Shown here: one piece after another, positions 5,322-57,731 of the stretch
Position numbering within the stretch: the first letter of the stretch is position 1
How the letters are laid out: each line of letters opens with the position of its first letter
Assembly (NCBI GenBank): GCA_964540825.1
Contig: CAZINT010000004.1
Location: 24,835-88,834 of the forward strand
Source: an uncultured Gammaproteobacteria bacterium
Lineage (GTDB): Bacteria; Patescibacteriota; Patescibacteriia; Magasanikbacterales; GWA2-37-8
Direction: 5' to 3'
DNA: 64,000 bases
Translations under genes and position numbers: made by a program
The notes under the pieces: model-generated
Told to the model about the DNA's origin: nothing
The model's input: the letters and a program-made list of their open reading frames with translations, nothing else
Databases searched by the model: none

Positions 5322-5353
5322 AAAAAACAGCCCTTCCTCAAGGCTGTTTTTTA
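5322..5353 (+). terminator. Rho-independent terminator
   Basis: aaacagcc-cttcctcaa-ggctgttt followed by a T-run. Confidence 0.8.
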
Positions 5354-5407
5354 TTTGCCAAAAGATACCTAAAATGGTACGCTCAGAGTACTTTTCTCTT
5401 GTTTTTT

Positions 5408-6955
5408 ATGCCAAAACTCATTCCTATTATCGGTCTTGAAATTCATGTCGAGCTCAAAACTAAATCTAAGATGTTTTGCTCGTGCGTGAATGACCCTTTT
5501 ATTGATACGCCAAACACCAATATTTGCGAAGTCTGCCTGGCGCACCCCGGCACCCTTCCGGTACCAAACAAAATCGGTATTGTCGGCGCGATTGGAATCG
5601 CCAAAGCCCTTAACTGCACCATCGCAAAAACAAGCAAATTTGATCGCAAACATTATTTTTACCCCGATCTTCCCAAGGGTTACCAAATTTCTCAGTATGA
5701 CCAACCTATTGGTGAACACGGTTTTATTGAACTTGAAATAGCAGGCGCAAACCATCGTCCTACTGCTCGTATTGGCGTGACGCGCGTCCATATGGAAGAG
5801 GATACGGCCAAACTTGACCATGCTGCTAGTGGCACTGCTTTGGTTGATTTTAACCGTGCCGGGGTACCACTCGTCGAAATTGTTTCCGACCCCGATGTTG
5901 AAAGCGCTGCCGAGGCCAAGGCCTACTGTCAGGAACTCCAGCTCATTTTCCGCACCCTTGGCGTCAGTAATGCTGATATGGAAAAAGGCCAGATGCGCTG
6001 CGAAGCAAACATCTCTCTTCAAGCGGAAGGCAGTTATACAAATGTGAACGGTGTGATTACCCCCAATGAAGGTGTCAGACTTAACTCCAAAGTTGAAGTA
6101 AAAAATATCAACTCCTTCCGCGCTGTTGAGAAGGCGATTGAGTTTGAAATTAAACGACAGACCGAACTGATTGAAAAAGGCGAAACGTGGATCCCCGAAA
6201 CACGCGGCTGGGATGAAAAAAAACAAGCTACCATCCATCAGCGCAGCAAAGAATCGAGCGCTGATTATCGTTATTTCCCTGAACCGGATATTCCACCGTT
6301 TAACCCGTTGCTGCTTAGTGAAGCAGTTATTTTGCCTGAACTCCCCCAAGCCAAACGCTTACGTTTTGTAACTGAATATGGCTTTTCTAAGGCTGACGCC
6401 CAAATCCTCACCAGCGATCCGGAATGGGCAATTTTCACTGAAAACGTCATGAGCGAACTCACCGAATGGCTGCACTGTCTCCCTGAGAGCAAGGATGACA
6501 GCCCGGAAGTACATCAGAATAAAAAGCAGCAACTGGCGAAGCTTGCCGGCGGCTGGCTCACCACCAAACTCATGGGTGCCATGGCCGAGCGCAAAACTGA
6601 CATCCGCATCCTCCGCATTAAAGAAGAGAACTTTGCCGAACTGATGGCGCTTATTTACACCAACCGCGTCAACTCCACCAACGCGCAAAAAATCCTTATC
6701 GAAATGCTTGATTCTGGTGTCGATATGGACCCAACGCATATCATGGAAGACAAAGGGTATGGACAGATTAGCGACGAAGGCAAACTTGGCACCGTAGCGG
6801 ACGATATTATCAAAAACCATCCAGAACAGGTCGCTCAATTTAAAGCTGGCAAGGAACCGATTATCAAATTCCTCGTCGGCATGCTCATGAAAGCGACCGA
6901 AGGAAGTGCAGACCCGCAGATAGCCGAAAAATTGCTCCGGGAAAAGATGCGGTAA
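5408..6955 (+). CDS. gatB: Asp-tRNA(Asn)/Glu-tRNA(Gln) amidotransferase subunit B
   Basis: GatB motifs (IGLEIHVEL, FDRKHYFYPDLPKGYQISQ) and a C-terminal GatB_Yqey-like domain. Start taken at MPKLIP. Confidence 0.9.
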   Translation: MPKLIPIIGLEIHVELKTKSKMFCSCVNDPFIDTPNTNICEVCLAHPGTLPVPNKIGIVGAIGIAKALNCTIAKTSKFDRKHYFYPDLPKGYQISQYDQPIGEHGFIELEIAGANHRPTARIGVTRVHMEEDTAKLDHAASGTALVDFNRAGVPLVEIVSDPDVESAAEAKAYCQELQLIFRTLGVSNADMEKGQMRCEANISLQAEGSYTNVNGVITPNEGVRLNSKVEVKNINSFRAVEKAIEFEIKRQTELIEKGETWIPETRGWDEKKQATIHQRSKESSADYRYFPEPDIPPFNPLLLSEAVILPELPQAKRLRFVTEYGFSKADAQILTSDPEWAIFTENVMSELTEWLHCLPESKDDSPEVHQNKKQQLAKLAGGWLTTKLMGAMAERKTDIRILRIKEENFAELMALIYTNRVNSTNAQKILIEMLDSGVDMDPTHIMEDKGYGQISDEGKLGTVADDIIKNHPEQVAQFKAGKEPIIKFLVGMLMKATEGSADPQIAEKLLREKMR

Positions 6956-6967
6956 AATTATTTAAAT

Positions 6968-6992
6968 AGCCCGTAAACACGGGCTATTTTTT
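6968..6992 (+). terminator. Rho-independent terminator after gatB
   Basis: agcccg-taaaca-cgggct followed by T6. Confidence 0.8.
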
Positions 6993-7029
6993 ATAAAGTG
7001 CACACTTTAAGTATGTGGACAACACACCT

Positions 7030-7137
7030 TTGACGCACCTGCAATACCCTGCTACACTTAAACGTATGAAACCTATCCTCCCTCACAACCCCTTCCTTTC
7101 CTAGTTGTCGGCCACCCGTATATGGGTGGTTTTTTTA
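7030..7137 (+). promoter_or_regulatory. Pyrimidine (pyrBI-type) transcription attenuator: promoter, leaderless 12-codon leader peptide and intrinsic terminator
   Basis: TTGACG 7030-7035, 17-nt spacer, TACACT 7053-7058. The ORF MKPILPHNPFLS* at 7066-7104 starts about 1-7 nt after the predicted transcription start, and its RNA is C/U-rich. The terminator ccaccc-gtatat-gggtgg plus U7 at 7113-7137 lies 20 nt before the pyrB ATG. Confidence 0.6.
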
Positions 7138-11510: not shown

Positions 11511-12329
11511 ATGAACGCTCTTGAAAAACTGGAACGAAGTATTAAAAAAAATAATTCACTCGTGTGCGTCGGCCTTGATCCTGAAATAGCAAAGCTTCCT
11601 GAACAATTTAAAAATTCCAATACTCCACAGTTTGATTTTAATCGAGCGATCATCGATGCCACGCACGACCTCGTCTGTGCCTATAAACCAAACCCCGCAT
11701 TTTATGAAGCACGCGGTGCGGATGGCATCCGTGAATTAAAAATGACTTGCGACTATATTCGTGAAACGTATCCGGATATTTTTCTCATTTTGGATTTAAA
11801 ACGCGCCGATATTGGCAATACCAGCTGCGGTTCGGCTGAGTTTGGCTTTGATTATCTTGGTGCAGACGCAGTAACCCTGAATCCGTACCTTGGTAGCGAC
11901 GCGCTTGCTCCCTACCTCGAGCGGGCCGACAAAGCATCGTTCATCCTCTGCCGCACGTCCAATGCCGGTAGCGGCGAAATTCAAGACTTATTGGTTGATG
12001 GTGTACCGCTCTACCAAAAAATTGCTTTAAAAATTGCCACCGAGTGGAACAAAAATAAAAACTGTGGCTTGGTTGCTGGCGCCACGTATCCTACTGAACT
12101 TGCGACTGTCCGCCACCTTGCAGGCGATCTGCCTATTCTAACACCCGGTATTGGTGGCCAAGGCGGCAGCGTTGAAGCCATACTTAAGGCCGGGTTAACA
12201 CCGCAAAAAACCGGTCTCATCATCAATTCTTCGCGAAGTATTATTTTTGCCGGTAGCGGCAAAGATTTTGCCGAAAAGGCCAGATCTGCCGCTTTGGAAC
12301 TCCGCAAAGAAATACATAATTTTTGCTAA
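11511..12329 (+). CDS. pyrF: Orotidine 5'-phosphate decarboxylase (long/type-2 form)
   Basis: VCVGLDP, DLKRADIGNT and the rest of the OMPdecase fold; 272 aa. Confidence 0.85.
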   Translation: MNALEKLERSIKKNNSLVCVGLDPEIAKLPEQFKNSNTPQFDFNRAIIDATHDLVCAYKPNPAFYEARGADGIRELKMTCDYIRETYPDIFLILDLKRADIGNTSCGSAEFGFDYLGADAVTLNPYLGSDALAPYLERADKASFILCRTSNAGSGEIQDLLVDGVPLYQKIALKIATEWNKNKNCGLVAGATYPTELATVRHLAGDLPILTPGIGGQGGSVEAILKAGLTPQKTGLIINSSRSIIFAGSGKDFAEKARSAALELRKEIHNFC

Positions 12330-12354
12330 TTTTAGCCAAAATAGTTTGTACACC

Positions 12355-12413
12355 TCTTGACAAAAGGGGTGTTTTTTGATAGGATGGAGCGTTGCTCAAA
12401 TACGGAGGTTTCC
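12355..12413 (+). promoter_or_regulatory. Sigma-70-like promoter plus a strong Shine-Dalgarno in front of the high-GC gene
   Basis: TTGACA-17-TAGGAT, then GGAGG 7 nt before ATG 12414. This contrasts with the Shine-Dalgarno-poor neighbouring genes. Confidence 0.5.
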
Positions 12414-12752
12414 ATGTCCCAGCCTTTTCATGAGGTTCCTATCGGCTTTTTGATCGCCGTGCTTTACCACCACGAGATCGTCGAGGCGGTTGACCATGAC
12501 CAGGTGCCTGGAACAGTCGGCGAGGTCCTCGACTGGTCGAAGGCCATCCTCGGCATCGAGTTCGAGCCGGCCCAGTTCGTCGAGGCGCTCAAGCAGCTGG
12601 CGGAGTACTTCCGTCGCCGGCTCCACGACGACACGATCCTCAGACGGCTGAACGATGTGGTTCCGAACCGCCTCGACAAGGGTCAGAGCATCGACGCCAT
12701 TGAGCAGGCCATGCTCAAGGAGTTCGGCAATCACATCTTTTTCCGGAAGTAA
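12414..12752 (+). CDS. Hypothetical 112-aa protein encoded in a ~62% GC island
   Basis: Clean ORF with very high third-position GC. ORFs overlap on both strands, as expected for high-GC DNA. The product was not recognised. Confidence 0.55.
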   Translation: MSQPFHEVPIGFLIAVLYHHEIVEAVDHDQVPGTVGEVLDWSKAILGIEFEPAQFVEALKQLAEYFRRRLHDDTILRRLNDVVPNRLDKGQSIDAIEQAMLKEFGNHIFFRK

Positions 12753-12786
12753 CCCTGGTCAAGCGGCACACTCGACCACCCTCGTC

Positions 12787-12845
12787 CCGCCGCTACCCAC
12801 CAAGTTCATTCGTGGACTTTCGTAGGTAGCGGGACGAGCAATCGA
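12787..12845 (+). repeat. GC-rich stem-loop (14-bp stem, 27-nt loop) 3' of the high-GC gene
   Basis: ctcgtcccgc(cg)ctacc ... ggtagcgggacgag. No U-tract, as in terminators of high-GC organisms. Confidence 0.5.
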
Positions 12846-12865
12846 TCCGCTTGTTCCTTACAAAA

Positions 12866-12897
12866 AATAAAAACCACCTAAAAGGTGGTTTTTATTT
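12866..12897. terminator. Bidirectional rho-independent terminator
   Basis: An A-run, then aaaccacc-taaaa-ggtggttt, then a T-run. Confidence 0.75.
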
Positions 12898-14043
12898 TTA
12901 TACTCCGTTTGCCGCAACGAGTCGGTGCCTAATCGCATCACGCAAATTCACGAGTTCCGGGTAGTCATAAAAAAATAATACTTTCTGATCAGCGATCGAC
13001 GTGCCGGTTGGCCTGTCTTTAAGGACAAACGCGCTCCAACTTTCGGCCATATCTTCTTCAGGATTTACTGCGGCATAGTCGGTAATAAACCAGTCCTGAT
13101 GTTGGCTATACCAGTCGTTCATTTGTTCTTGTATGGCCGCATCATAGCCATCTTGAGAAAGCGCTTTATATTCACTCCAGGTCGATTTCCAAAAGCGATT
13201 GTAAAAAGTATTCAGATACGAATCGCTGCGCATACAGCCAAACAAAGAAGTGTAGGCTCTGCAGTCACTGCCGTCATCTATGCTACTGCTTTCGCCATCT
13301 TCGTTATCAGAAGGCGCCACGCTTTCATCATAACCCGCTTGTTCGTTTTGATTCAGGGTAAGTGCGTGACCAAACTCATGAATTAAAAAATAGGTGAGGC
13401 TTCCCGGGTCAAAATTGTTATTCGGAAACGCATCAGCAATATCGACGTAAAGGGTGTAGGTTCCGCTTCCGGCGTCGCCTGGCACCAAAGACGCTGCTGA
13501 TTTCGAGTTACCGTCGGTATACACGACGTAACCGTCGACAATGTCATACATCCCTTTTGGAAATAGGGTGGTGAACAATTTCCACGGACGCTGCAGCTTA
13601 TTTTTATCCTTTTGCCATTTTTTCAATGCCGCCGGAACCGCTGGACGGTCAGTAAGTTTGAGTTTGCCGTCATCTGCGCTGTACTCCATAATCGACGTTT
13701 CTTCATCCACGTCAAACGAATCCTGTTCGCGATCAGCGTTAATATACTTGTTCCAAATCGCCAATCCCTTAGCCGCTGCAGCCGACTCCTTCGCCGTGCA
13801 ATCGCCGCTTGAGCTGCACACGAGTTTGCAGGCCTTAGCACTCACGTCATAGCGCTCGCTTTTCAAACAATCTTCAGGCTTCAATTCCGGAAAACTATGT
13901 ACCGGAGCTTCGTTTGAAAAAGAAAATAGTCGGGCCTCGCTGATTTTGGCACTGACTGTTTGCAAAGCGTCCCCCGGCTGGCAGCCAGCACCCATTGTGA
14001 GGACGGCGATTAACCCTGCGGTTATAAAATATTTTTTAGACAT
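12898..14043 (-). CDS. Secreted zinc-metallopeptidase-like lipoprotein
   Basis: Signal peptide with a lipobox (LTMGAGC), HEFGH zincin motif and a downstream Glu (EDMAE); 381 aa. Confidence 0.65.
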   Translation of the reverse strand: MSKKYFITAGLIAVLTMGAGCQPGDALQTVSAKISEARLFSFSNEAPVHSFPELKPEDCLKSERYDVSAKACKLVCSSSGDCTAKESAAAAKGLAIWNKYINADREQDSFDVDEETSIMEYSADDGKLKLTDRPAVPAALKKWQKDKNKLQRPWKLFTTLFPKGMYDIVDGYVVYTDGNSKSAASLVPGDAGSGTYTLYVDIADAFPNNNFDPGSLTYFLIHEFGHALTLNQNEQAGYDESVAPSDNEDGESSSIDDGSDCRAYTSLFGCMRSDSYLNTFYNRFWKSTWSEYKALSQDGYDAAIQEQMNDWYSQHQDWFITDYAAVNPEEDMAESWSAFVLKDRPTGTSIADQKVLFFYDYPELVNLRDAIRHRLVAANGV

Positions 14044-27382: not shown

Positions 27383-28333
27383 ATGCTTGATCTCGTTATC
27401 ATCGGAGGAGCCGCTGTTGGCTGCAGCGCTGCTGTCTACGCCGCCCGCCGCAAACTCAACTTTGTCATGATCACCGAAAATATCGGCGGTGAAGTCGCGC
27501 TCTCGGGAGCCGTGGGTAATTGGCCGGGTATTATTGATATTCAGGGCTTTGAGCTCGCTAATAAATTTGCCGAACATGCCCGCAGTTACGGCGTAAACAT
27601 CGAAGAAGGCTGGACTGTGACGTCGATTGTACCTACTAAAAATTACCACGTTATTACTGCCACCAAGGCTAACGGCGAAACTCGCACGATCGAAACTAAA
27701 TCAGTTATCATCGGCACCGGGATTCATCCTCGTCGCCTGGGCGTCCCTGGTGAAGACATCTTTGATCATAAAGGTGTTACCTACTGCACCGTTTGTGATG
27801 GCCCTATTTTTAAAAATAAAATTACAGCTACCCTCGGTGGCGGCAATAGCGGCCTCGAATCCGCGCTCATGATGGCGGGTATTGCTAAACAAGTCTATCT
27901 TTTAACTAAATACCCAAACACCCCCGAACATGCCGGCGGCTTTCCAAAAGGCGAAGCCATCTTGGTTGACAAGCTGAAAGCACTGCCAAATGTTGAAATA
28001 CTGTACGAAGCAATTACGACTGAAATTACCGGCGAACAAAAAGTAAACGGTCTTGTCTATAAAACCCCGACAGGCGAAACAAAATCACTTGCGCTCGATG
28101 CCGTCATGGTGCATATCGGCATGATCCCTAATTCTAAATTTGTTAAAGACGTTGTTGCGCTCGACAAGCAGGGCCAGATCATCGCCGACACTAAATGCCG
28201 CACCAACGTACCTGGTATCTTTGCAGCCGGCGATGTGACCGATATTCCGTACAAACAAATCGGCATCGCTGCCGGACAAGGTATTGTCGCCGCGCTGGCC
28301 GCGATTGAATATGTTAATCTTTGGAAAGAATAG
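27383..28333 (+). CDS. trxB: Thioredoxin reductase-like FAD/NAD(P)H disulfide oxidoreductase
   Basis: GGxAxGCSAA FAD motif, redox CTVCDG motif, and GGGNSG. Confidence 0.8.
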   Translation: MLDLVIIGGAAVGCSAAVYAARRKLNFVMITENIGGEVALSGAVGNWPGIIDIQGFELANKFAEHARSYGVNIEEGWTVTSIVPTKNYHVITATKANGETRTIETKSVIIGTGIHPRRLGVPGEDIFDHKGVTYCTVCDGPIFKNKITATLGGGNSGLESALMMAGIAKQVYLLTKYPNTPEHAGGFPKGEAILVDKLKALPNVEILYEAITTEITGEQKVNGLVYKTPTGETKSLALDAVMVHIGMIPNSKFVKDVVALDKQGQIIADTKCRTNVPGIFAAGDVTDIPYKQIGIAAGQGIVAALAAIEYVNLWKE

Positions 28334-39339: not shown

Positions 39340-39449
39340 AGGAATTTTTTAAAACTAAATCTATTATGAGTGTAGCACCGCACCGAGCTTTCGGCAATAT
39401 AGCAAAAGCCTCTGGTTAAAGAGGCTTTAGCATCTATACTACTGTCCTG

Positions 39450-39512
39450 CCGTCACCTCCCAAAACTTTCATTAACTGAAAATCTCAGGAGGGTCGGGCG
39501 GCAGGGTGAGGG
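39450..39512. repeat. GC-rich stem-loop 3' of the high-GC secreted-protein gene
   Basis: cctgccg..cctcc, a 27-nt loop, then ggagg..cggcagg. The architecture matches the stem-loop at 12787-12845. Confidence 0.45.
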
Positions 39513-39542: not shown

Positions 39543-40085
39543 CTATTTGTGATCGTCCGGATCTGTCGGAGCACGTGGCGGCTGGTCGGCGCCCTTCAGC
39601 GCTTCACATTGATCGTAACCAAGCTTGTAGAGAGCGTCAGCATTCGCGTTAGCAAACGCTACGCATGCCTCCGACGTTTCCATCCCAGCTTTTCGAACCG
39701 GGTGGACCGGCAGTCCCAACCACAGCATATCGTACTTTTTTTCGTTCATGCAGTCGATGAATCCGCGCCAAACGATCCGGCGCGAATCGAGACAGTTGGC
39801 CGGCTCTCCTTGGAAAGGCAGGAGTTCAACCGGGGCGGACCGGGGAGGCGCTGCGGGGTGCGGCGCGGGTGCCTGCAGGGTAGCGCCGCCATCGAGCGAA
39901 GCAAGGGCGGCTGGCGCTGCGGGCAGAGCGGAAGGCTGCTTGGCCAGCTGCTCAAGGCACTTTGCCCGAGCTTTTTTGTTTTTCTTGGCTCGGCACTTTT
40001 CTTCCGTCAGTGGCTTTTTAACCGCGAACTTCGGCGCTGCGATCAAGGTGGCCCCGAGGAGCAGGATAAAAAACACGTTATGCAT
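39543..40085 (-). CDS. Secreted hypothetical protein encoded in a ~60% GC island
   Basis: Signal peptide MHNVFFILLLGATLIAAP, Ala/Pro-rich sequence and six Cys. ORFs overlap on both strands, as in high-GC DNA. Confidence 0.5.
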   Translation of the reverse strand: MHNVFFILLLGATLIAAPKFAVKKPLTEEKCRAKKNKKARAKCLEQLAKQPSALPAAPAALASLDGGATLQAPAPHPAAPPRSAPVELLPFQGEPANCLDSRRIVWRGFIDCMNEKKYDMLWLGLPVHPVRKAGMETSEACVAFANANADALYKLGYDQCEALKGADQPPRAPTDPDDHK

Positions 40086-40152
40086 TCTCACACCTCACTC
40101 AAAACTTTCTAAGATACTAGCATAAAACCCTATTAAAATCAAGGGTTTAGGA

Positions 40153-51611: not shown

Positions 51612-52694
51612 ATGGCTAAACAGACAACGAGCGATGAAGTTAAAGAAAAACTAAAAGCTGCTGAAAGCGCAATTGAACAGATCAAAAGCCGCTTTGGCGA
51701 TGGAGCAATTATGAAATTTGGCGAAGCCCGTGCCATGCAGGTTGATGCTGTGCCGACCGGTGCGCTTTCACTTGATATTGCGCTTGGTGTCAAAGGTGTT
51801 CCGCGTGGACGCGTTATTGAAATCTACGGACCGGAGGCAAGCGGTAAAACCACGCTTGCTCAGCACATCGTTTCCGAAGTTCAAAAGATGGGCGGTATTG
51901 CCGCGTACGTCGATGCTGAACACGCGCTTGACCCTGATTATGCTAAAAAAATCGGTGTTAAAGTTGACGAACTCCTCATTTCTCAGCCCGACACTGGTGA
52001 ACAGGCCCTGGAGATCGTTGAAACACTGGTCAGGTCTAATGCTGTTGACGTGATCGTTATCGATTCGGTCGCTGCGCTCGTTCCTAAAGCCGAAATTGAA
52101 GGCGAGATGGGTGACCAGCACATGGGTCTGCAGGCACGCCTCATGAGTCAAGCCCTTCGTAAGCTCACCGGTATTATCAGTAAATCAAAAACTGTCGTTA
52201 TCTTTATTAACCAGACTCGTCTCAAAATCGGTATTGTATTCGGCAACCCGGAAACCACTACTGGGGGTGTTGCGCTCAAATTTTATTCTTCAGTGCGTAT
52301 CGAAATCCGCCGCGCCGCTCAAATTAAGCAAGGCGACAAAATTATCGGTAACCGCGTTAAAGTTAAAATTGTCAAAAACAAAGTGGCCGCACCATTTCGT
52401 ACCACTGAATTTGATATCATGTATAACGAAGGTATCTCAGTTTCAGGTGATGTACTCGATACAGCTGTTACCTATAAAGTAATTGAAAAACGCGGTAATT
52501 CTTACACCTACAAAGAAGAGAAATTAGGCGTTGGTCGCGAAACTGCTAAAAAATATTTGCGTGACAACCCAAAAATTCTCAAAGAAATTCGTAACCAAGT
52601 TATCGAAGCGGCCGATCGCGGAGACGCACCGGACGAAGAGGTGGGCAACCCTGACGAAGGATCTTCAAACGAAGAAGTACCGCCGCAAGAATAA
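51612..52694 (+). CDS. recA: Recombinase RecA
   Basis: GPEASGKTT Walker A and the full set of RecA motifs; 360 aa. Confidence 0.97.
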
Positions 52695-52702
52695 AGCCAC
52701 TC

Positions 52703-52744
52703 TAAAAAACCGGTTCACTCAAACAGTGTTAACCGGTTTTTTAA
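52703..52744 (+). terminator. Rho-independent terminator after recA
   Basis: aaccggtt ... aaccggtt palindrome followed by a T-run. Confidence 0.8.
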
Positions 52745-52828
52745 ATCCAAGCAGCGCTGCTTGTTATTTTAAAAAAAATATTGTACAGTTACTTCCGTAG
52801 TGGAACTTATTCGTTATCGTAACTCTTT

Positions 52829-53494
52829 ATGACAAGCTCAAATAATCAAAATACTGGCGCGCTCAAAAGTGTTGGCCTTGGCCTTGGCATCTTAGCTGTG
52901 TTGGCCTTGTGCGTATATGGCCTAATGCGGCTTGGCGCAGCAAGTAACCCTGCCGGCGTTACGGGCGGTGAAATCGCTTCTGTTTCGGCAGCGGATTGGC
53001 AGCGGGGCAATCAATACGCTAAAAATGTGCTTATTGAATATAGCGACTTCCAATGCCCCGCTTGCGCCGCATACGAACCCCTCGTTCGCCAACTCATGAA
53101 AGATTTTGATAATCAAATTCTACTTATTTATCGCCATTTTCCGTTATCCCAACATGTTCATGCGGAGCTTGCTGCCCAAGCTTCCGAGGCAGCGGGCAAG
53201 CAAGGCAAGTTCTGGGATATGCACGACCTACTTTTTGATCGCCAAGGTTCCTGGGAAAATACTGGCGACGCTGAAGCAACCTTCAAAGGATATGCCAAAG
53301 AACTCGGACTTGACGAAGCCAGGTTTGCCGCTGACCTTAATTCTGATGAAATCAAAAAATTGGTTGCCGAAGATGCTGACGGAGGTCTTCATGCCGGCAT
53401 TAATTCTACGCCAAGTTTTTACTTAAATGGCAAAAAAATCGACAATCCGAAAACTTACGAAGAATTTAAAAAATTACTTACTACCGGTTCATAA
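52829..53494 (+). CDS. DsbA-family thiol:disulfide oxidoreductase, membrane-anchored
   Basis: N-terminal transmembrane helix and the CPAC thioredoxin motif. Confidence 0.75.
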   Translation: MTSSNNQNTGALKSVGLGLGILAVLALCVYGLMRLGAASNPAGVTGGEIASVSAADWQRGNQYAKNVLIEYSDFQCPACAAYEPLVRQLMKDFDNQILLIYRHFPLSQHVHAELAAQASEAAGKQGKFWDMHDLLFDRQGSWENTGDAEATFKGYAKELGLDEARFAADLNSDEIKKLVAEDADGGLHAGINSTPSFYLNGKKIDNPKTYEEFKKLLTTGS

Positions 53495-53608: not shown

Positions 53609-54814
53609 CTACGGGGTATAGCGGAGCAGTCGCCCGACGAGTGTAGCCCCCGGCTTTCCGTCTTGCCCGGCCGGCCGTGTTATGACTATCACCTGATCCC
53701 TCCCAAAGGCAGCGAGGCTCGCTCCGGTGATTTTGGGATCAAGATCAAGATGGTGCGACGGATAACCCGTACTATCAACAGCTACAAAACGAGCGTACGT
53801 GTTGCCGACCTGCGGCACGACTGCCACCAGCTGTTTGACGCCGGGGAGCGTCAAAAAGGTGGTACCCGGCAGATACGGTACCGGCTCCTCCGCCGGCAGC
53901 TCGATTTTTTGGTCACTGTAGCCGATGATAGAGAGTAGCGACCCGGCATCGTTTCTCCAAGCCGCTGCCAGACCGGCCCCGTGCGTGTGGAGGCTTTGGC
54001 CCTGGATAGCAGTGTTCTTATACAGATCACTGCACGAAGTCGTACCATCAACCAGGTTGGTTCGCCGGTCGAGCAGGATGTCAGCGACCGTATCGACACC
54101 ACTGTAGCGCACGCCCGCATACACAACCACTGCCAGACGAAGCTCGAGAGCAATCCCCGTATCACCATTTTTCAGGAAGCGGCGATAGAGAATACCCACT
54201 CGACGTTCGACAGTGTTGTTTCCAAAGGTGAGCGGCGCCAGGCTATCAGCGACCGGTGCACACAATTGTTGCTGCCCGCCGTTTGGCAACACGGCGTTTC
54301 CCTCATTAAAGGGCTCGCCACTAGAATCGAAAGCGAACAGACGCAAGCCAGCGGTTGTCAGCTCCGGCCTCGGGGTCATAGCGACACAGAAGCCGCTATG
54401 GCAGGCAGCAACGCTTGCATGTGCATCGTTTCCCACCCGTTGGAGCCCACCCTTGTAGTCCCGCAGGGTGAAGCCGAGCGCACTACCCATCAAGACTGCG
54501 TCGTTACTATTCGCAAAACTCGTTGGCATGCCGACCGACGCCCCTGTGCTGGGCGGGCTGGCTACATGCCAATCCCCGGATGCCGGCAGAAAGGGCTGGT
54601 AGGAGCTGTCACTTGCAACCAGCCAGCACCAGGCAGTGCCCAAGCACAGCGGCGTCGGGACCCCAGGACTTGTTGCCGGCCACGAGGCCTCGTAAACTCG
54701 CGAAAAGCTGGCGGCAGGCCCGTCGGCCCCGCCGCGGTCAGAGGTGACGGACGGAGCAGCATCAGCCCCGCAACCCACAGCAGCGACCAGAGCGATCAAC
54801 CATAAACGAACCAT
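53609..54814 (-). CDS. Secreted lipoprotein, function unknown, in a ~62% GC island
   Basis: Signal peptide with a lipobox (LVAAVGC); Gly/Ser/Ala/Thr-rich 401 aa. Perfect Shine-Dalgarno AAGGAGGTG 5 nt upstream of the ATG. Confidence 0.5.
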   Translation of the reverse strand: MVRLWLIALVAAVGCGADAAPSVTSDRGGADGPAASFSRVYEASWPATSPGVPTPLCLGTAWCWLVASDSSYQPFLPASGDWHVASPPSTGASVGMPTSFANSNDAVLMGSALGFTLRDYKGGLQRVGNDAHASVAACHSGFCVAMTPRPELTTAGLRLFAFDSSGEPFNEGNAVLPNGGQQQLCAPVADSLAPLTFGNNTVERRVGILYRRFLKNGDTGIALELRLAVVVYAGVRYSGVDTVADILLDRRTNLVDGTTSCSDLYKNTAIQGQSLHTHGAGLAAAWRNDAGSLLSIIGYSDQKIELPAEEPVPYLPGTTFLTLPGVKQLVAVVPQVGNTYARFVAVDSTGYPSHHLDLDPKITGASLAAFGRDQVIVITRPAGQDGKPGATLVGRLLRYTP

Positions 54815-54949: not shown

Positions 54950-55810
54950 GTGCATATGATCGACCCCCGTTTTCTAACCATCCAAAAAAACGAACATACT
55001 GAGTATTGTATTTATAAAAAAATTCTCAAAATCGTTAAAAACCCTAATGATCGTAAAATTATTGAACGAATGATCGCCCAAGAAAAAAATCATTATGAAA
55101 TGTGGCGAGAAATTACTGGTCAAAGCATTCGCCCCTCGCAAGCAAAGATACAATTCTACTATTGGATCACCCGTCTTTTTGGCCTAAGCTTCGGACTTAA
55201 ACTCATGGAAAAAGGAGAGAAGCTGGTTATCAGCCTCTACAGCGAACTCAAGGACGTGCACCCCAAAATGGCCAAAGTTATTCAAGAAGAACAGGAACAC
55301 GAAGAGGAATTACTCAAACTTATTAACAATAATGTCCTTACGTACGTAAGCGCAATTGTACTGGGGCTCAACGACGCCCTTATCGAGCTAACCGGCGCTC
55401 TAACCGGCTTCACCTTGGCCCTGTCAAACACACGTCTTATTGCGGTAACCGGCCTTATTACGGGTATTGCCGCGGCAATGTCTATGGCCGCATCATCATA
55501 TCTTTCCACCAAAGAAGATGGCGAAAAAAACCCGTTCGCCGCAGCGGTCGCAACCGGCAGTGCTTATGCACTAGCTGTTGCAATACTCATTGCTCCTTAT
55601 TTTTTAATCACCAACGCTTTTGTTGCGCTCGGGGTAACACTCCTCAGCGCCCTGATTATTATTTTGGTATTTAACTTTTATACTGCAATCTCCAAAGGAA
55701 TATCTTTTCGGCGCAGATTTGCTGAAATGGCGTTAATTAGTCTTGGTCTTGCGCTGATTAATTTTGGAATCGGCTATGTACTTAAAAAGTATCTCCACCT
55801 ATCAATCTAA
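54950..55810 (+). CDS. VIT1/CCC1-family iron/manganese transporter with an N-terminal ferritin-like domain
   Basis: N-terminal rubrerythrin/ferritin-like helices (E..H motifs) followed by five transmembrane helices of the VIT family. Confidence 0.7.
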   Translation: MHMIDPRFLTIQKNEHTEYCIYKKILKIVKNPNDRKIIERMIAQEKNHYEMWREITGQSIRPSQAKIQFYYWITRLFGLSFGLKLMEKGEKLVISLYSELKDVHPKMAKVIQEEQEHEEELLKLINNNVLTYVSAIVLGLNDALIELTGALTGFTLALSNTRLIAVTGLITGIAAAMSMAASSYLSTKEDGEKNPFAAAVATGSAYALAVAILIAPYFLITNAFVALGVTLLSALIIILVFNFYTAISKGISFRRRFAEMALISLGLALINFGIGYVLKKYLHLSI

Positions 55811-55871
55811 GCAAGGCAATACTTAAAAAATACGGCAAAAACACATTATACATACGTAATTTAATTATCAT

Positions 55872-56459
55872 ATGGAAACACATCTCATCAACAAACTACC
55901 TGTTATCGGCAACCCTGTTCCTGACCTCAATTTTCAAATCTACCACAATGAGGAATTCAAAAAAACAAGTCTTGATAATTATCGCGGCAAATGGCTGATT
56001 CTTTTTTTCTACCCTGCCGACTTTACGTTTGTCTGCCCCACCGAACTTGAAGACATGGCCGACCATTACGCCGAGTTTCAAGCAATGAATACGGAAATTA
56101 TTAGCGTCAGTACCGACACCCATTTCGTTCACAAAGCCTGGCATGACAACTCACCTGCCATCAAAAAAATTACGTTCCCAATGGCCGCAGATCCAACCGG
56201 TGTACTTTGTCATGAATTCGGCACGTATATCGAGTCTGAAGGCTTATCGCTGCGCGGCACATTTATTATTGACCCGGACGGTGTACTCAAAGCATTCGAA
56301 GTCAACGACAACAGCATCGGACGCAATGCCGAAGAACTGCTGCGCAAAATGCAAGCCGCACAGTACGTCCGCGAACATGGCGGCGAAGTTTGCCCGGCCA
56401 AATGGAAACCAGGCGACGCAACGCTGACACCAGGTCTTGATCTGGTAGGAAAAATTTAA
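55872..56459 (+). CDS. 2-Cys peroxiredoxin (AhpC/Prx1 type)
   Basis: FTFVCPTEL peroxidatic-Cys motif and a C-terminal resolving Cys (EVCPAKW). Confidence 0.9.
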   Translation: METHLINKLPVIGNPVPDLNFQIYHNEEFKKTSLDNYRGKWLILFFYPADFTFVCPTELEDMADHYAEFQAMNTEIISVSTDTHFVHKAWHDNSPAIKKITFPMAADPTGVLCHEFGTYIESEGLSLRGTFIIDPDGVLKAFEVNDNSIGRNAEELLRKMQAAQYVREHGGEVCPAKWKPGDATLTPGLDLVGKI

Positions 56460-56476
56460 CTTTAACTTTCACCCCT

Positions 56477-57079
56477 ATGTACGCTGCTAAAAATTATGAT
56501 GCACTTATTGGCACTGAGGGCTTCAGCGAAAAATTACTCACGACCCACTTCACCCTCTACCAAGGTTATGTTGCAAACACCAACAAACTCTCCGACCAAC
56601 TTCGCACACTCCTTGATAGTGATATGGCAGCTAGCCCTGAATACGCCGAGTTGACCCGTCGTTTCGGCTGGGAATTTAACGGCATGCGGCTCCACGAATA
56701 CTATTTCGAGAATATGAAAAAAGGTGGAGCTCAACTTGCAACAGGATCGCCTTTGCAAACCGCCCTCGCTCAACAATTCGGTACGATTGAAAACTGGCAA
56801 AAAGATTTTATTGCGACTGGTGCGCTGCGCGGTATCGGCTGGGCCATTCTCTACTATGATCAGCTCGCCGATCGCTATTTCAATTGCTGGGTCAACGAAC
56901 ACGACACTGGACACTTGGCCGGTTGCGTACCGCTCCTCATCATGGACGTATTCGAACACGCCTTCATCATTGACTATGGCACTAAACGTGCTGATTATAT
57001 TCAAAGTTTCATTAAAGCGATTGATTGGACTAAAGTCGACGAACGTCGAATGATGCTTACCAAATCAAGCACGCTCTAA
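56477..57079 (+). CDS. Fe/Mn superoxide dismutase (divergent N-terminus)
   Basis: C-terminal DVFEHAFIIDYGTKRADYI matches the SOD D..H metal-ligand region. The N-terminal helix hairpin retains its His residues. Confidence 0.75.
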   Translation: MYAAKNYDALIGTEGFSEKLLTTHFTLYQGYVANTNKLSDQLRTLLDSDMAASPEYAELTRRFGWEFNGMRLHEYYFENMKKGGAQLATGSPLQTALAQQFGTIENWQKDFIATGALRGIGWAILYYDQLADRYFNCWVNEHDTGHLAGCVPLLIMDVFEHAFIIDYGTKRADYIQSFIKAIDWTKVDERRMMLTKSSTL

Positions 57080-57215: not shown

Positions 57216-57731
57216 CTACAATAAACCCATGTCTTTGATGACCGAAATAAAAGAAGACGGCCTCCCCAGCCTTCGCGCCTCCGCGAGTTCAAAAGCCCGG
57301 TGGCCTTCGAGCAGGAGTTCACCAACCGGCATTTTTCCTTGACAGAGCACTTCATGCCCGCCGTCAAAGTACCAGAGTTCCACGAACGCAGGCAGCAGAT
57401 TTAGCTCCGAGTGCTCCGCAGTTAACTGCCATAGTTCACGGAAAATACGGTCAATAGTCTCCGGCGGGAAATAGGCAGAAAGCGCGTACACCACATGACC
57501 GGCGCCAGCGAGGGTCTCTACCCACGCCAGGAAACTATCGCTCCCACTTTTTTCGATAATAACCAGCTCGCGTGGATAGAGCTTTGGCTCTAGAACAAGC
57601 GGCCACACTTCGGGCTGCGTGGACACATCGGGCACGTCCTGTCCACGATACACAGCCAAACGACCTGGTGTAACCGATGAGGCAGCAGGCAAGCGTAAGA
57701 CGGGCAGCCCCCAGCGGATAGTATCACTCAT
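57216..57731 (-). CDS. Hypothetical protein, moderately GC-elevated (~55%)
   Basis: 171-aa ORF with no recognised motif. Confidence 0.4.
   Translation of the reverse strand: MSDTIRWGLPVLRLPAASSVTPGRLAVYRGQDVPDVSTQPEVWPLVLEPKLYPRELVIIEKSGSDSFLAWVETLAGAGHVVYALSAYFPPETIDRIFRELWQLTAEHSELNLLPAFVELWYFDGGHEVLCQGKMPVGELLLEGHRAFELAEARRLGRPSSFISVIKDMGLL

Follow-up and report, generated by a model that had tools for sequence, protein, structure and literature searches.

An orphan high-GC gene in a Magasanikbacteria-like chromosome as the probable payload of an exchangeable single-gene expression slot

How does one short gene of high GC content come to lie alone among the housekeeping genes of a bacterium from the Candidate Phyla Radiation (CPR, or Patescibacteria), a group with tiny genomes and a dependence on other cells, in which the gain of new functions is poorly understood? 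The question is raised by a 64-kb stretch of contig CAZINT010000004.1 (the whole stretch that was analyzed, referred to as the window). On its plus strand, a 112-amino-acid (aa) open reading frame (ORF) extends from an ATG at 12414 to a TAA at 12750-12752, downstream of pyrF and ahead of convergent peptidase and Band_7 genes. Its locus was compared with sister loci, which were gathered in part as neighborhoods of close Band_7 orthologs and labeled L001 to L014 and onward. From this comparison, we propose that a Magasanikbacteria-like CPR chromosome probably contains a moron-like slot for the expression of single genes, which is filled from a high-GC pool and shuffled by recombination, and that the 112-aa gene is its current payload.

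The ORF (12414-12752) has a GC content of 58.7%, with fractions of 0.66, 0.28, and 0.81 at the first, second, and third codon positions, respectively, compared to 46.3% for the whole window. In sliding windows of 340 bp, the mean GC fraction was 0.463 with a standard deviation of 0.046, and a local maximum of 0.62 was reached at the ORF; windows of 100 bp around it reached up to 0.66. A reading made earlier from the letters of this DNA (the sequence-only reading) had described a high-GC single-gene island of about 62% GC. The figure holds as the 340-bp peak but exceeds the mean of the ORF, and the island itself is confirmed by GC content at third codon positions (GC3), which is 0.81 compared to 0.47 ± 0.07 across the genes of the window. 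Among 62 nonoverlapping ORFs (mean GC3 of 0.468, standard deviation of 0.072), only three lie more than two standard deviations above the mean: the 112-aa ORF and those at 39.5 kb and at 53.6 to 54.8 kb. The jump in GC had been placed exactly at the ATG. We found a gradual rise instead, with a GC3 of 0.65 over approximately 17 opening codons and of 0.8 to 1.0 thereafter. The 3' untranslated region remains at approximately 60% GC, and the value returns to approximately 40% from about position 12850.

High-GC DNA gives long open frames on several strands, and an antisense open frame of 112 aa is indeed listed at 12396-12734. Such a region could be an artifact, be it an assembly chimera, contaminating reads, or a noncoding GC-rich element with a chance open frame. 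However, the sequence across the junction of pyrF, ORF, and downstream hairpin is identical in an independent Logan assembly (L003), and an ortholog of 115 aa with 88% identity (P0002) occupies the corresponding locus in a second metagenome-assembled genome (MAG), L001, and in a further independent assembly, L002. In L001, it likewise forms an island, with a GC3 of 0.78 within a contig of 45.6% GC. Because the junction is reproduced and the ortholog sits at the matching locus, an assembly chimera, against which the sequence-only reading had cautioned, is excluded. Substitutions between the ORF and its L001 ortholog are distributed 5/5/21 over the three codon positions, and the two indels of 12 and 3 nucleotides (nt) are multiples of three. 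The rates of nonsynonymous (dN) and synonymous (dS) substitution were 0.049 and 0.30, respectively, corresponding to a dN/dS of 0.16 (Fisher P = 1.5 × 10^-6). All of these values match the plus-strand frame. Rfam, searched with the whole window at the gathering threshold and with 12300-12920 by E value, returned nothing except a weak match to the terminator. An artifact is therefore scarcely credible, and the 112-aa ORF is a genuine coding gene under selective constraint. The database version of the protein (P0001, 131 aa) takes as its start codon a TTG within the -35 hexamer of the predicted promoter and is probably a miscall. The ORF region was also considered as a structured RNA; this candidate was rejected, as its predicted structure showed no excess over shuffled sequences (z = -0.93).

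Site B, as we designate the stretch from the end of the upstream operon to the convergent peptidase/Band_7 genes, carries different alleles in the sister genomes:

Window and L001: the 112/115-aa protein; GC of 0.59 to 0.61, GC3 of 0.78 to 0.81.
L005: a divergent 153-aa allele of the 112-aa gene (P0004); GC of 0.70, GC3 of 0.88.
L013 and L014: an unrelated lipoprotein-like ORF of 125/132 aa; GC of 0.58, GC3 of 0.66.
L008 to L011: an unrelated 153-aa ORF; GC of 0.56, GC3 of 0.67.
L012: no payload (deleted allele).

According to BLASTP, the payloads are mutually unrelated except for the family shared by the window, L001, and L005. Between the window and L013, flanking genes are mostly 63 to 86% identical (lower over one intergenic stretch), whereas the payload region shows 40 to 48% identity, which is the random level. 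The possibility that the payloads represent one DNA segment read in different frames was ruled out by the same value. The alignments show that the replaced segment extends from just past the -10 hexamer to approximately 10 nt beyond the stop codon. In the deleted allele of L012, a decayed 3' hairpin arm, ATAGCAGAATGAGG, is retained. This sequence and that of L013 are approximately 99% identical to the right of CGCTTGTTCC and approximately 60% identical to the left of it, so L012 is a deletion allele located on a recombination breakpoint.

The age of the alleles was evaluated from silent sites. Over the C-terminal 39 codons, the L005 allele and the 112-aa gene share 36% of third positions and 41% of amino acids, which means that silent sites are saturated. 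Since the Band_7 genes of the same two genomes differ by only approximately 15%, the alleles either are much older than the split of the genomes or were drawn separately from a diverged pool. The dS of 0.30 for the 112-aa gene is lower than that of all 13 neighboring core genes compared, which ranged from 0.65 to saturated. The payload of the island at 53.6 kb behaves in the same way, with a dS of 0.68 compared to 1.3 to 2.2 for four further genes, and a dN/dS of 0.17 compared to 0.02 to 0.065. As the dS of both payloads is below that of core genes, the data suggest that lineages exchanged payloads when their core genomes had already diverged. The sequence-only reading had suggested a recent acquisition from a high-GC donor. 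The gene is common to two genomes with a core dS of at least 0.65, so that "recent" cannot be shown. Nor is this a single event, as the slot holds at least three unrelated payloads in addition to a saturated allele and a deleted one.

On the 5' side of the payload, the locus comprises the following elements:

12318 to 12356, plus strand: conserved 5' end of the module, TTTTTGCTAATTTTAGCCAAAATA...ACACCTC, which overlaps the pyrF stop codon (12327-12329) and is homologous to modules at the gatB-pyrB site of L001 and L006.
12350 to 12378, plus strand: terminator-like pyrF hairpin (12350-12372) and T-run, with the -35 hexamer in the loop.
12357 to 12385, plus strand: predicted sigma-70-type promoter, TTGACA (at 12357), 17 nt, TAGGAT, with an extended -10 TG at 12377-12378.
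12386 to 12413, plus strand: short leader with the module-shared motif GTTGCTCAA, followed by the Shine-Dalgarno sequence GGAGG (12404-12408), 5 nt before the ATG.

The promoter match is the sole one in 12200-13000, where 0.5 would be expected by chance. Its sequence from -35 to -10 is kept in L001, which carries the same payload, and in L013, which carries an unrelated one. Modules at site B and at the gatB-pyrB site (site A) have homologous 5' ends, sharing TTTTGCYTTATTTTAGCCAAAA...CTCTTGACAAAA...TGTTTT.TG.TA...CGTT, and the homology of site A reaches the Shine-Dalgarno sequence in the form AACT(A)GCAAACRGGAG. The conserved end at 12318-12356 is missing from the deleted allele of L012. Both the promoter and the Shine-Dalgarno sequence were found as the sequence-only reading had predicted them; the overlap between the pyrF hairpin and the -35 hexamer is an addition to it. 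Promoter, leader, and Shine-Dalgarno sequence are a shared architecture of the locus that did not arrive with the gene.

Three elements follow on the 3' side:

12757 to 12857, plus strand: conserved long bulged hairpin of approximately 100 nt, the core of which (12781-12838) reads CTCGTCCC, a 3-nt bulge GCC, GCTACC ... GGTAGC, GGGACGAG, with an apical mini-hairpin.
12850 to 12862, plus strand: conserved junction CTTGTTCCTTACA, which coincides with a recombination breakpoint in relatives; all alleles carry the motif, even the deleted one.
12863 to 12899, no strand assigned: predicted bidirectional intrinsic terminator, AAAAACCACCT-AAA-AGGTGGTTTTT and a T-run, shared with the convergent peptidase-like gene (12898-14043, minus strand).

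From base to tip, the hairpin is built of AAGCGG/CCGCTT, TCGA/TCGA, CTCGTCCC/GGGACGAG, the 3-nt bulge on the 5' side, GCTACC/GGTAGC, and the mini-hairpin. Its minimum free energy as RNA is -44.9 kcal/mol (z = -5.95). The same fold with the same 3-nt bulge recurs in eight hairpin copies (z = -3.8 to -7.2), five of them at site B, two at site A (L001 and L006), and one at 39449-39506 on the minus strand of the window. RNAalifold detected seven compensatory pairs across five sequences and eight across all eight, mainly in the upper stem and apex. With the covariance model, the sense strand reached 73 bits, compared to 32 bits for the antisense strand, and G-U wobbles likewise occur on the sense strand, which fits a function in the transcript.

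The GC-rich stem at 12781-12838 (8 + 6 = 14 bp) exists as described earlier and is followed by CAATCGATCC without a U-tract, so that the stem itself does not qualify as an intrinsic terminator; a regular one follows at 12863-12899. In the sequence-only reading, the stem had been likened to actinobacterial terminators. That it was imported as such is contradicted by its conservation beside unrelated ORFs, by the paralogs elsewhere, and by the normal terminator that follows. The identity of the hairpin block among sister genomes is 76 to 91%, matching or exceeding the 80 to 85% of the Band_7 coding sequence. For the window and L013, which carry unrelated ORFs, it amounts to 83% in a 100-nt window (12784-12883) and to 91% over the block. 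Because hairpin sequences cluster by site and not by payload, the hairpin is resident. It is thus part of a native architecture, and its richness in GC reflects structure and not foreign origin. For scans of atypical composition this is a caution, since a GC-rich stem beside a GC-rich gene turned out to be native and not imported.

Using a structural scan and the covariance model, termed R1, we detected no further hairpin copies in the window, which therefore holds two in 64 kb, or in more distant relatives. A scan of metagenome and viral collections for the hairpin pattern gave 24 + 1 matches, all of them in unrelated high-GC contexts and approximately at the number expected by chance.

These observations are best accommodated by a slot with fixed ends and exchangeable content, the reading to which we give better than even odds. 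As the comparison with sister genomes shows, the slot itself provides the predicted expression signals, namely, a strong promoter of the sigma-70 type (extended -10), a short leader, and the Shine-Dalgarno sequence ahead of the gene and the bulged hairpin of approximately 100 nt and an ordinary intrinsic terminator 3' of it. What lies between these ends is exchanged in sister genomes for high-GC orphan ORFs unrelated to the 112-aa gene or for an allele of ancient divergence, or it is deleted. Payloads would have evolved in a high-GC pool (approximately 60 to 70% GC) that is absent from public protein data and would have entered laterally. Alleles may then spread between strains by homologous recombination via the conserved slot ends and flanking core genes, and the hairpin may act as a payload-independent 3' stabilizer or processing element of the RNA.

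Several points weigh against this reading. The source of the payloads was not found in protein, plasmid, phage, and viral-contig searches, and plain illegitimate recombination does not account for junctions that are nearly ORF-precise. The promoter, the terminator, and the role of the hairpin in RNA are predictions. The lower dS of the payloads could partly result from a compositional constraint on silent sites. The comparison, and with it the generality of the pattern, draws on approximately seven distinct genomes, all of them metagenome assemblies from a few wastewater-type projects.

Another origin, along the lines of the sequence-only reading, would be one recent horizontal transfer out of a high-GC host, for instance an actinobacterium, in which the gene brought its own GC-rich terminator lacking a U-tract and gained a native promoter later. 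The order of GC at the codon positions, GC1 > GC2 << GC3 with a GC3 of 0.81, is typical of genomes of approximately 60 to 65% GC, and the 3' untranslated region has likewise approximately 60% GC. The bearer is a CPR bacterium, a group known for epibionts, and the sister genomes come from wastewater, which is rich in high-GC bacteria. However, homolog searches did not point to any such donor. A word-indexed search of 5.8 × 10^9 proteins returned the 112-aa protein itself and P0002 only. An exhaustive HMMER search of 1.84 × 10^9 representatives added one credible relative, P0004 (E = 2.5 × 10^-4), which is encoded at the same locus on L005, a third sister genome. By BLASTP, it is 35% identical to the 112-aa protein over 81 aa, and both proteins end in ...IFF[RK][KR]. 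Two other HMMER matches were discarded as spurious repeat artifacts: P0003 is a repeat protein of low complexity, and P0005 has LysM repeats. Neither tBLASTn against plasmids and phages nor a scan of viral contigs matched the 112-aa protein, and Pfam, NCBIfam, PHROGs, and PADLOC gave nothing significant for any of nine payload proteins examined.

The best matches thus belong to sister CPR genomes, at the same locus, and none to a high-GC donor lineage or to any organism outside the CPR. Of the earlier claim of foreign acquisition, the strongly foreign-like composition and patchy distribution stand, whereas homologs in a donor lineage do not exist among the proteins searched. Import from an actinobacterium is also at odds with the stem-loop, which lies beside unrelated ORFs, has paralogs elsewhere, and so was not imported with the gene. 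The saturated second allele in the L005 slot would require at least two entries or a long history, and the gene predates, or has crossed, a split with a core-gene dS of at least 0.65. We consider a single import of this kind unlikely.

The precision of the replacement brings a site-specific cassette system to mind, integron-like in that a recombinase encoded elsewhere would recognize the folded single-stranded hairpin and swap ORFs behind a resident promoter. Near ORF-precise junctions agree with it, as the homology of site A extends to the Shine-Dalgarno sequence and resumes approximately 10 to 30 nt from the stop codon; so do the asymmetric 3-nt bulge, which is constant at three loci while the apex varies as in attC sites, and the breakpoint of the L012 deletion or recombination, which lies inside or at the hairpin. 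In outline, the slot further recalls integron cassettes and clusters of attC sites lacking integron integrases (CALINs): a variable ORF precedes an imperfect hairpin (approximately 60 to 100 nt, with some bases unpaired and an apex that varies), ORFs without mutual relation have the same type of 3' element, and a resident promoter lies upstream. Against these similarities, core sites of the type RYYYAAC/GTTRRRY are absent: neither R'' nor R' was recognized, the stem base is AAGCGG/CCGCTT, and the downstream GTTCCTT does not fit GTTRRRY. No tyrosine recombinase (Phage_integrase domain), IntI, transposase, or attI was found in the 64 kb. Each site holds one unit with its own promoter, a two-ORF operon in the case of site A in L001, and there are no arrays. 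Whereas attC sites have single extrahelical bases, are conserved in structure only, and move with the cassette, the slot hairpin has a 3-nt bulge, is conserved in sequence by site, and is resident. Its G-U pairs and strand asymmetry favor an RNA role on the sense strand. An integron-like system is therefore doubtful. Nevertheless, junctions of such near ORF precision, together with an asymmetric bulge that stays constant, leave room for a dedicated cassette exchange. We tentatively entertain, as a minority view, that a small CPR clade has an undescribed single-cassette exchange system in which promoter-leader and bulged hairpin bracket an ORF-sized segment at several loci, with repeated refilling by a dedicated mechanism from a high-GC pool that may be host derived or mobile.

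Could the high GC content have arisen in place, by GC-biased gene conversion or by selection for a GC-rich, stable mRNA at a recombination hotspot? A recombination breakpoint does map to the slot, homologs are confined to this clade, and payload GC3 spans a range from 0.65 to 0.94. On the other hand, GC3 is shifted by 35 to 47 points in single ORFs while the adjacent core remains at 0.40 to 0.50, which is far above the effects reported for GC-biased gene conversion in bacteria. The payloads are unrelated proteins and not diverged copies of one gene, and the RNA of the ORF is not unusually structured. Hence, this explanation is highly improbable.

The proposed slot with exchangeable content is not limited to site B. 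A homologous slot also adjoins rpoC, and the window contains the following related features:

6955 to 7013, plus strand: interval from gatB to the pyrB leader (site A), a paralogous slot that is empty in the window and filled in L001 and L006.
39449 to 39506, minus strand: second copy of the bulged hairpin, 3' of the island-2 gene, with the same fold; it scores 42.6 bits with R1, the training set of which includes this sequence.
39543 to 40085, minus strand: payload of island 2, a secreted protein of approximately 180 aa (MHNVFFILLLGATLIAAPK...) with an N-terminal signal peptide, the promoter TTGATT-17-TAGTAT, and a Shine-Dalgarno sequence.
53609 to 54814, minus strand: payload of island 3, an orphan lipoprotein of 401 aa; the gene has a promoter, a Shine-Dalgarno sequence, and a terminator of its own and lacks the bulged hairpin.

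At site A, L001 has a promoter, two ORFs (for a lipoprotein of 104 aa and a membrane protein of 71 aa), hairpin, and terminator, and L006 has a promoter, a 127-aa ORF (GC of 0.67, GC3 of 0.94), hairpin, and terminator. The sequence-only reading had grouped the islands at 39.5 and 53.6 kb with the 112-aa gene, and both are likewise single orphan genes. The island-2 protein matched no family, and a protein search with the 401-aa protein of island 3 recovered only itself and an ortholog with 80% identity. A 187-aa ORF on the plus strand (39549-40112) was dismissed as a by-product of high GC, with the real island-2 gene on the minus strand.

Further islets were observed in the course of the comparison. 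Beside dcd in L008 (16150-16756, site C), a strong promoter and a leader starting with GCGTGTTCTTTAA, AGGAGTTTTCCATG, precede a lipoprotein ORF of high GC (MRLSILFFGAALFAGCISG...), truncated by the contig end; the counterpart in the window (approximately 660-790) has no such gene. As a marker for modules in general, the motif TTAGCCAAAA is only partly useful: at site C of L008, it falls within the spacer of the promoter, where the match may be due to chance. In L052 (2518-2955), an extra 145-aa ORF (GC of 0.55, GC3 of 0.60) is located between DsbA and recA, where the window has a 135-nt spacer (52694-52829); it appears to be another strain-variable single-gene islet. A 171-aa ORF on the minus strand of the window (57216-57731; GC of 0.55, GC3 of 0.58; no match in Pfam), between the superoxide dismutase and YecM-like genes, may be an older, partly ameliorated islet.

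Adjacent to site A, the pyrB leader (7013-7135) contains a promoter-like TTGACG-17-TACACT, a 12-codon ORF (ATGAAACCTATCCTCCCTCACAACCCCTTCCTTTCCTAG, encoding MKPILPHNPFLS), and then a terminator hairpin, GGCCACCCGTATATGGGTGG, with a T-run. It looks like a pyrBI-type transcription attenuator. The leader is kept in L001 and survives in L006, although the pyr operon was lost there. The pyr genes themselves vary in number: the window, L012, and L013 have pyrB-I-C-D-E-F, L001 (8724-10000) has pyrB-I-C only, L006 (8800-9230, in minus-strand view) has only remnants consisting of the leader and a pyrB fragment, and L008 (8756-9675) has none. The operon is in decay in this clade, and the capacity for de novo pyrimidine synthesis is being lost among close CPR relatives.

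Among known systems, the slot is most readily compared to phage morons, autonomous promoter-gene-terminator insertions that were first defined in HK97/HK022. Morons are recognized by their own promoter and terminator, a deviating GC content, and a position at which close relatives may have the gene, lack it, or carry another (PMC3594210). Similarly, the 112-aa gene is a single gene with its own predicted promoter (12357-12385) and terminator (12863-12899) and a GC3 far above that of surrounding genes, it is absent from L012, and other ORFs take its position in L013, L008, and L005. Unlike morons, it is found in a chromosomal housekeeping setting (pyr operon, ruvA, rpoBC, and recA), with no phage genes in the 64 kb and no PHROG match. 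Here, moreover, promoter and hairpin stay while the ORF is exchanged, which is not described for morons, and paralogous slots are present at several chromosomal sites. An element of the IS200/IS605 type or one resembling a miniature inverted-repeat transposable element does not fit, as the window encodes no transposase domain and has only two hairpin copies per 64 kb.

Genomic islets that are replaced via flanking homologous recombination, known, for example, from variable loci of naturally transformable bacteria, share with the slot differing alleles at a fixed position and a mosaic breakpoint at the locus. The slot differs from them in that the unit is a single ORF with junctions between the -10 and the Shine-Dalgarno sequence or start codon and approximately 10 nt past the stop, that every payload is a high-GC orphan, and that the architecture of promoter and hairpin recurs at other loci. 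Acquired interbacterial defense clusters of Bacteroidales contain small, laterally acquired orphan immunity genes of atypical composition in a conserved, strain-variable framework. The 112-aa product is small, acidic, and helical, as many immunity proteins are; in contrast to those clusters, no recombinase, array, or homology to a cognate toxin was found, and any functional link would be purely conjectural. Genes for competence and pili are common in CPR bacteria, and the transfers detected in Patescibacteria are mostly from inside the phylum, often from donors that have not been recovered (PMC12455944), a picture that the slot locus fits. A limited literature search found no description of slots of promoter, ORF, and bulged hairpin with exchangeable high-GC payloads in CPR bacteria.

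The product of the 112-aa gene is a cytoplasmic protein of 13 kDa with an isoelectric point of 5.4 and no signal peptide. An AlphaFold model predicts six helices at low confidence (predicted local distance difference test score [pLDDT] of 57). Foldseek found no fold match for this model (best E = 3.4), and PDB sequence profiles gave no significant match. The PucR-type helix-turn-helix domain (Pfam HTH_30) does not match the 112-aa protein. Residues 79 to 105 of P0004 reach 18.3 bits (E = 0.002), below the cutoff of 27, and align with residues 32 to 58 of the 112-aa protein, which are acidic. As a low-confidence guess, the protein may be a protein-binding neutralizer of the immunity or antifactor type and not an enzyme; the pLDDT of 57 and the lack of a fold match weaken this functional guess.

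The surroundings of the slot are a housekeeping region. The window encodes L1, dcd, thyA, folA, tmk, gatB, pyrB-I-C-D-E-F, Band_7, ruvA, FemAB-type enzymes, and IleRS, as well as ruvC, rpoB/C, ftsK, recA, EF-P, S18, and SSB. A Pfam domain search of its ORFs revealed no integrase, transposase, or phage domains. The nearest named homologs of the adjacent Band_7 protein are labeled Candidatus Magasanikbacteria or Patescibacteria. The organism had earlier been likened to Saccharibacteria; its assignment to the CPR holds, and the Band_7 labels point to Magasanikbacteria, not Saccharibacteria. The public label of L001/L004 (CAZECR010000006.1), "uncultured Gammaproteobacteria bacterium," conflicts with the gene content. 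Proteins of this contig are 77 to 98% identical to those of the window in 13 of 14 genes and 55% identical in one hypothetical gene, so the label is probably wrong, with Patescibacteria the likely assignment. One sister MAG originates from SRP286056, a data set of Polish municipal wastewater and river samples (PMC9405806), and its record bears the Gammaproteobacteria label, which is at odds with its genes.

Neighborhoods of more distant Band_7 homologs (L040 to L051) have other synteny and are uninformative for site B. In one of these relatives, L045 (39.5% GC), an island of 59% GC lies between ruvA and Band_7 (5350-5939); its ORFs are implausible and Rfam has no match, and it may be an undescribed structured RNA. 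The window also encodes a set of oxidative-stress genes at 27383-28333 and 54950-57079 (thioredoxin-reductase-like, VIT/ferritin-like, peroxiredoxin, and Fe/Mn superoxide dismutase). Such a set is notable for a CPR genome and agrees with reports of oxic adaptation in groundwater CPR bacteria.

The locus presents single foreign-like genes that are exchanged within a fixed expression frame amid housekeeping operons, without visible mobile-element machinery. Several of the payloads are lipoproteins or secreted proteins, a class expected to mediate contact with a host. If a dedicated exchange system were true, it would be a compact way for reduced genomes to sample surface and immunity-type proteins. 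If the pattern holds, it would provide a natural "expression cassette" for organisms that are still beyond the reach of engineering, and it would make the flow of genes into CPR genomes, and possibly the identity of their partners, accessible to concrete tests.

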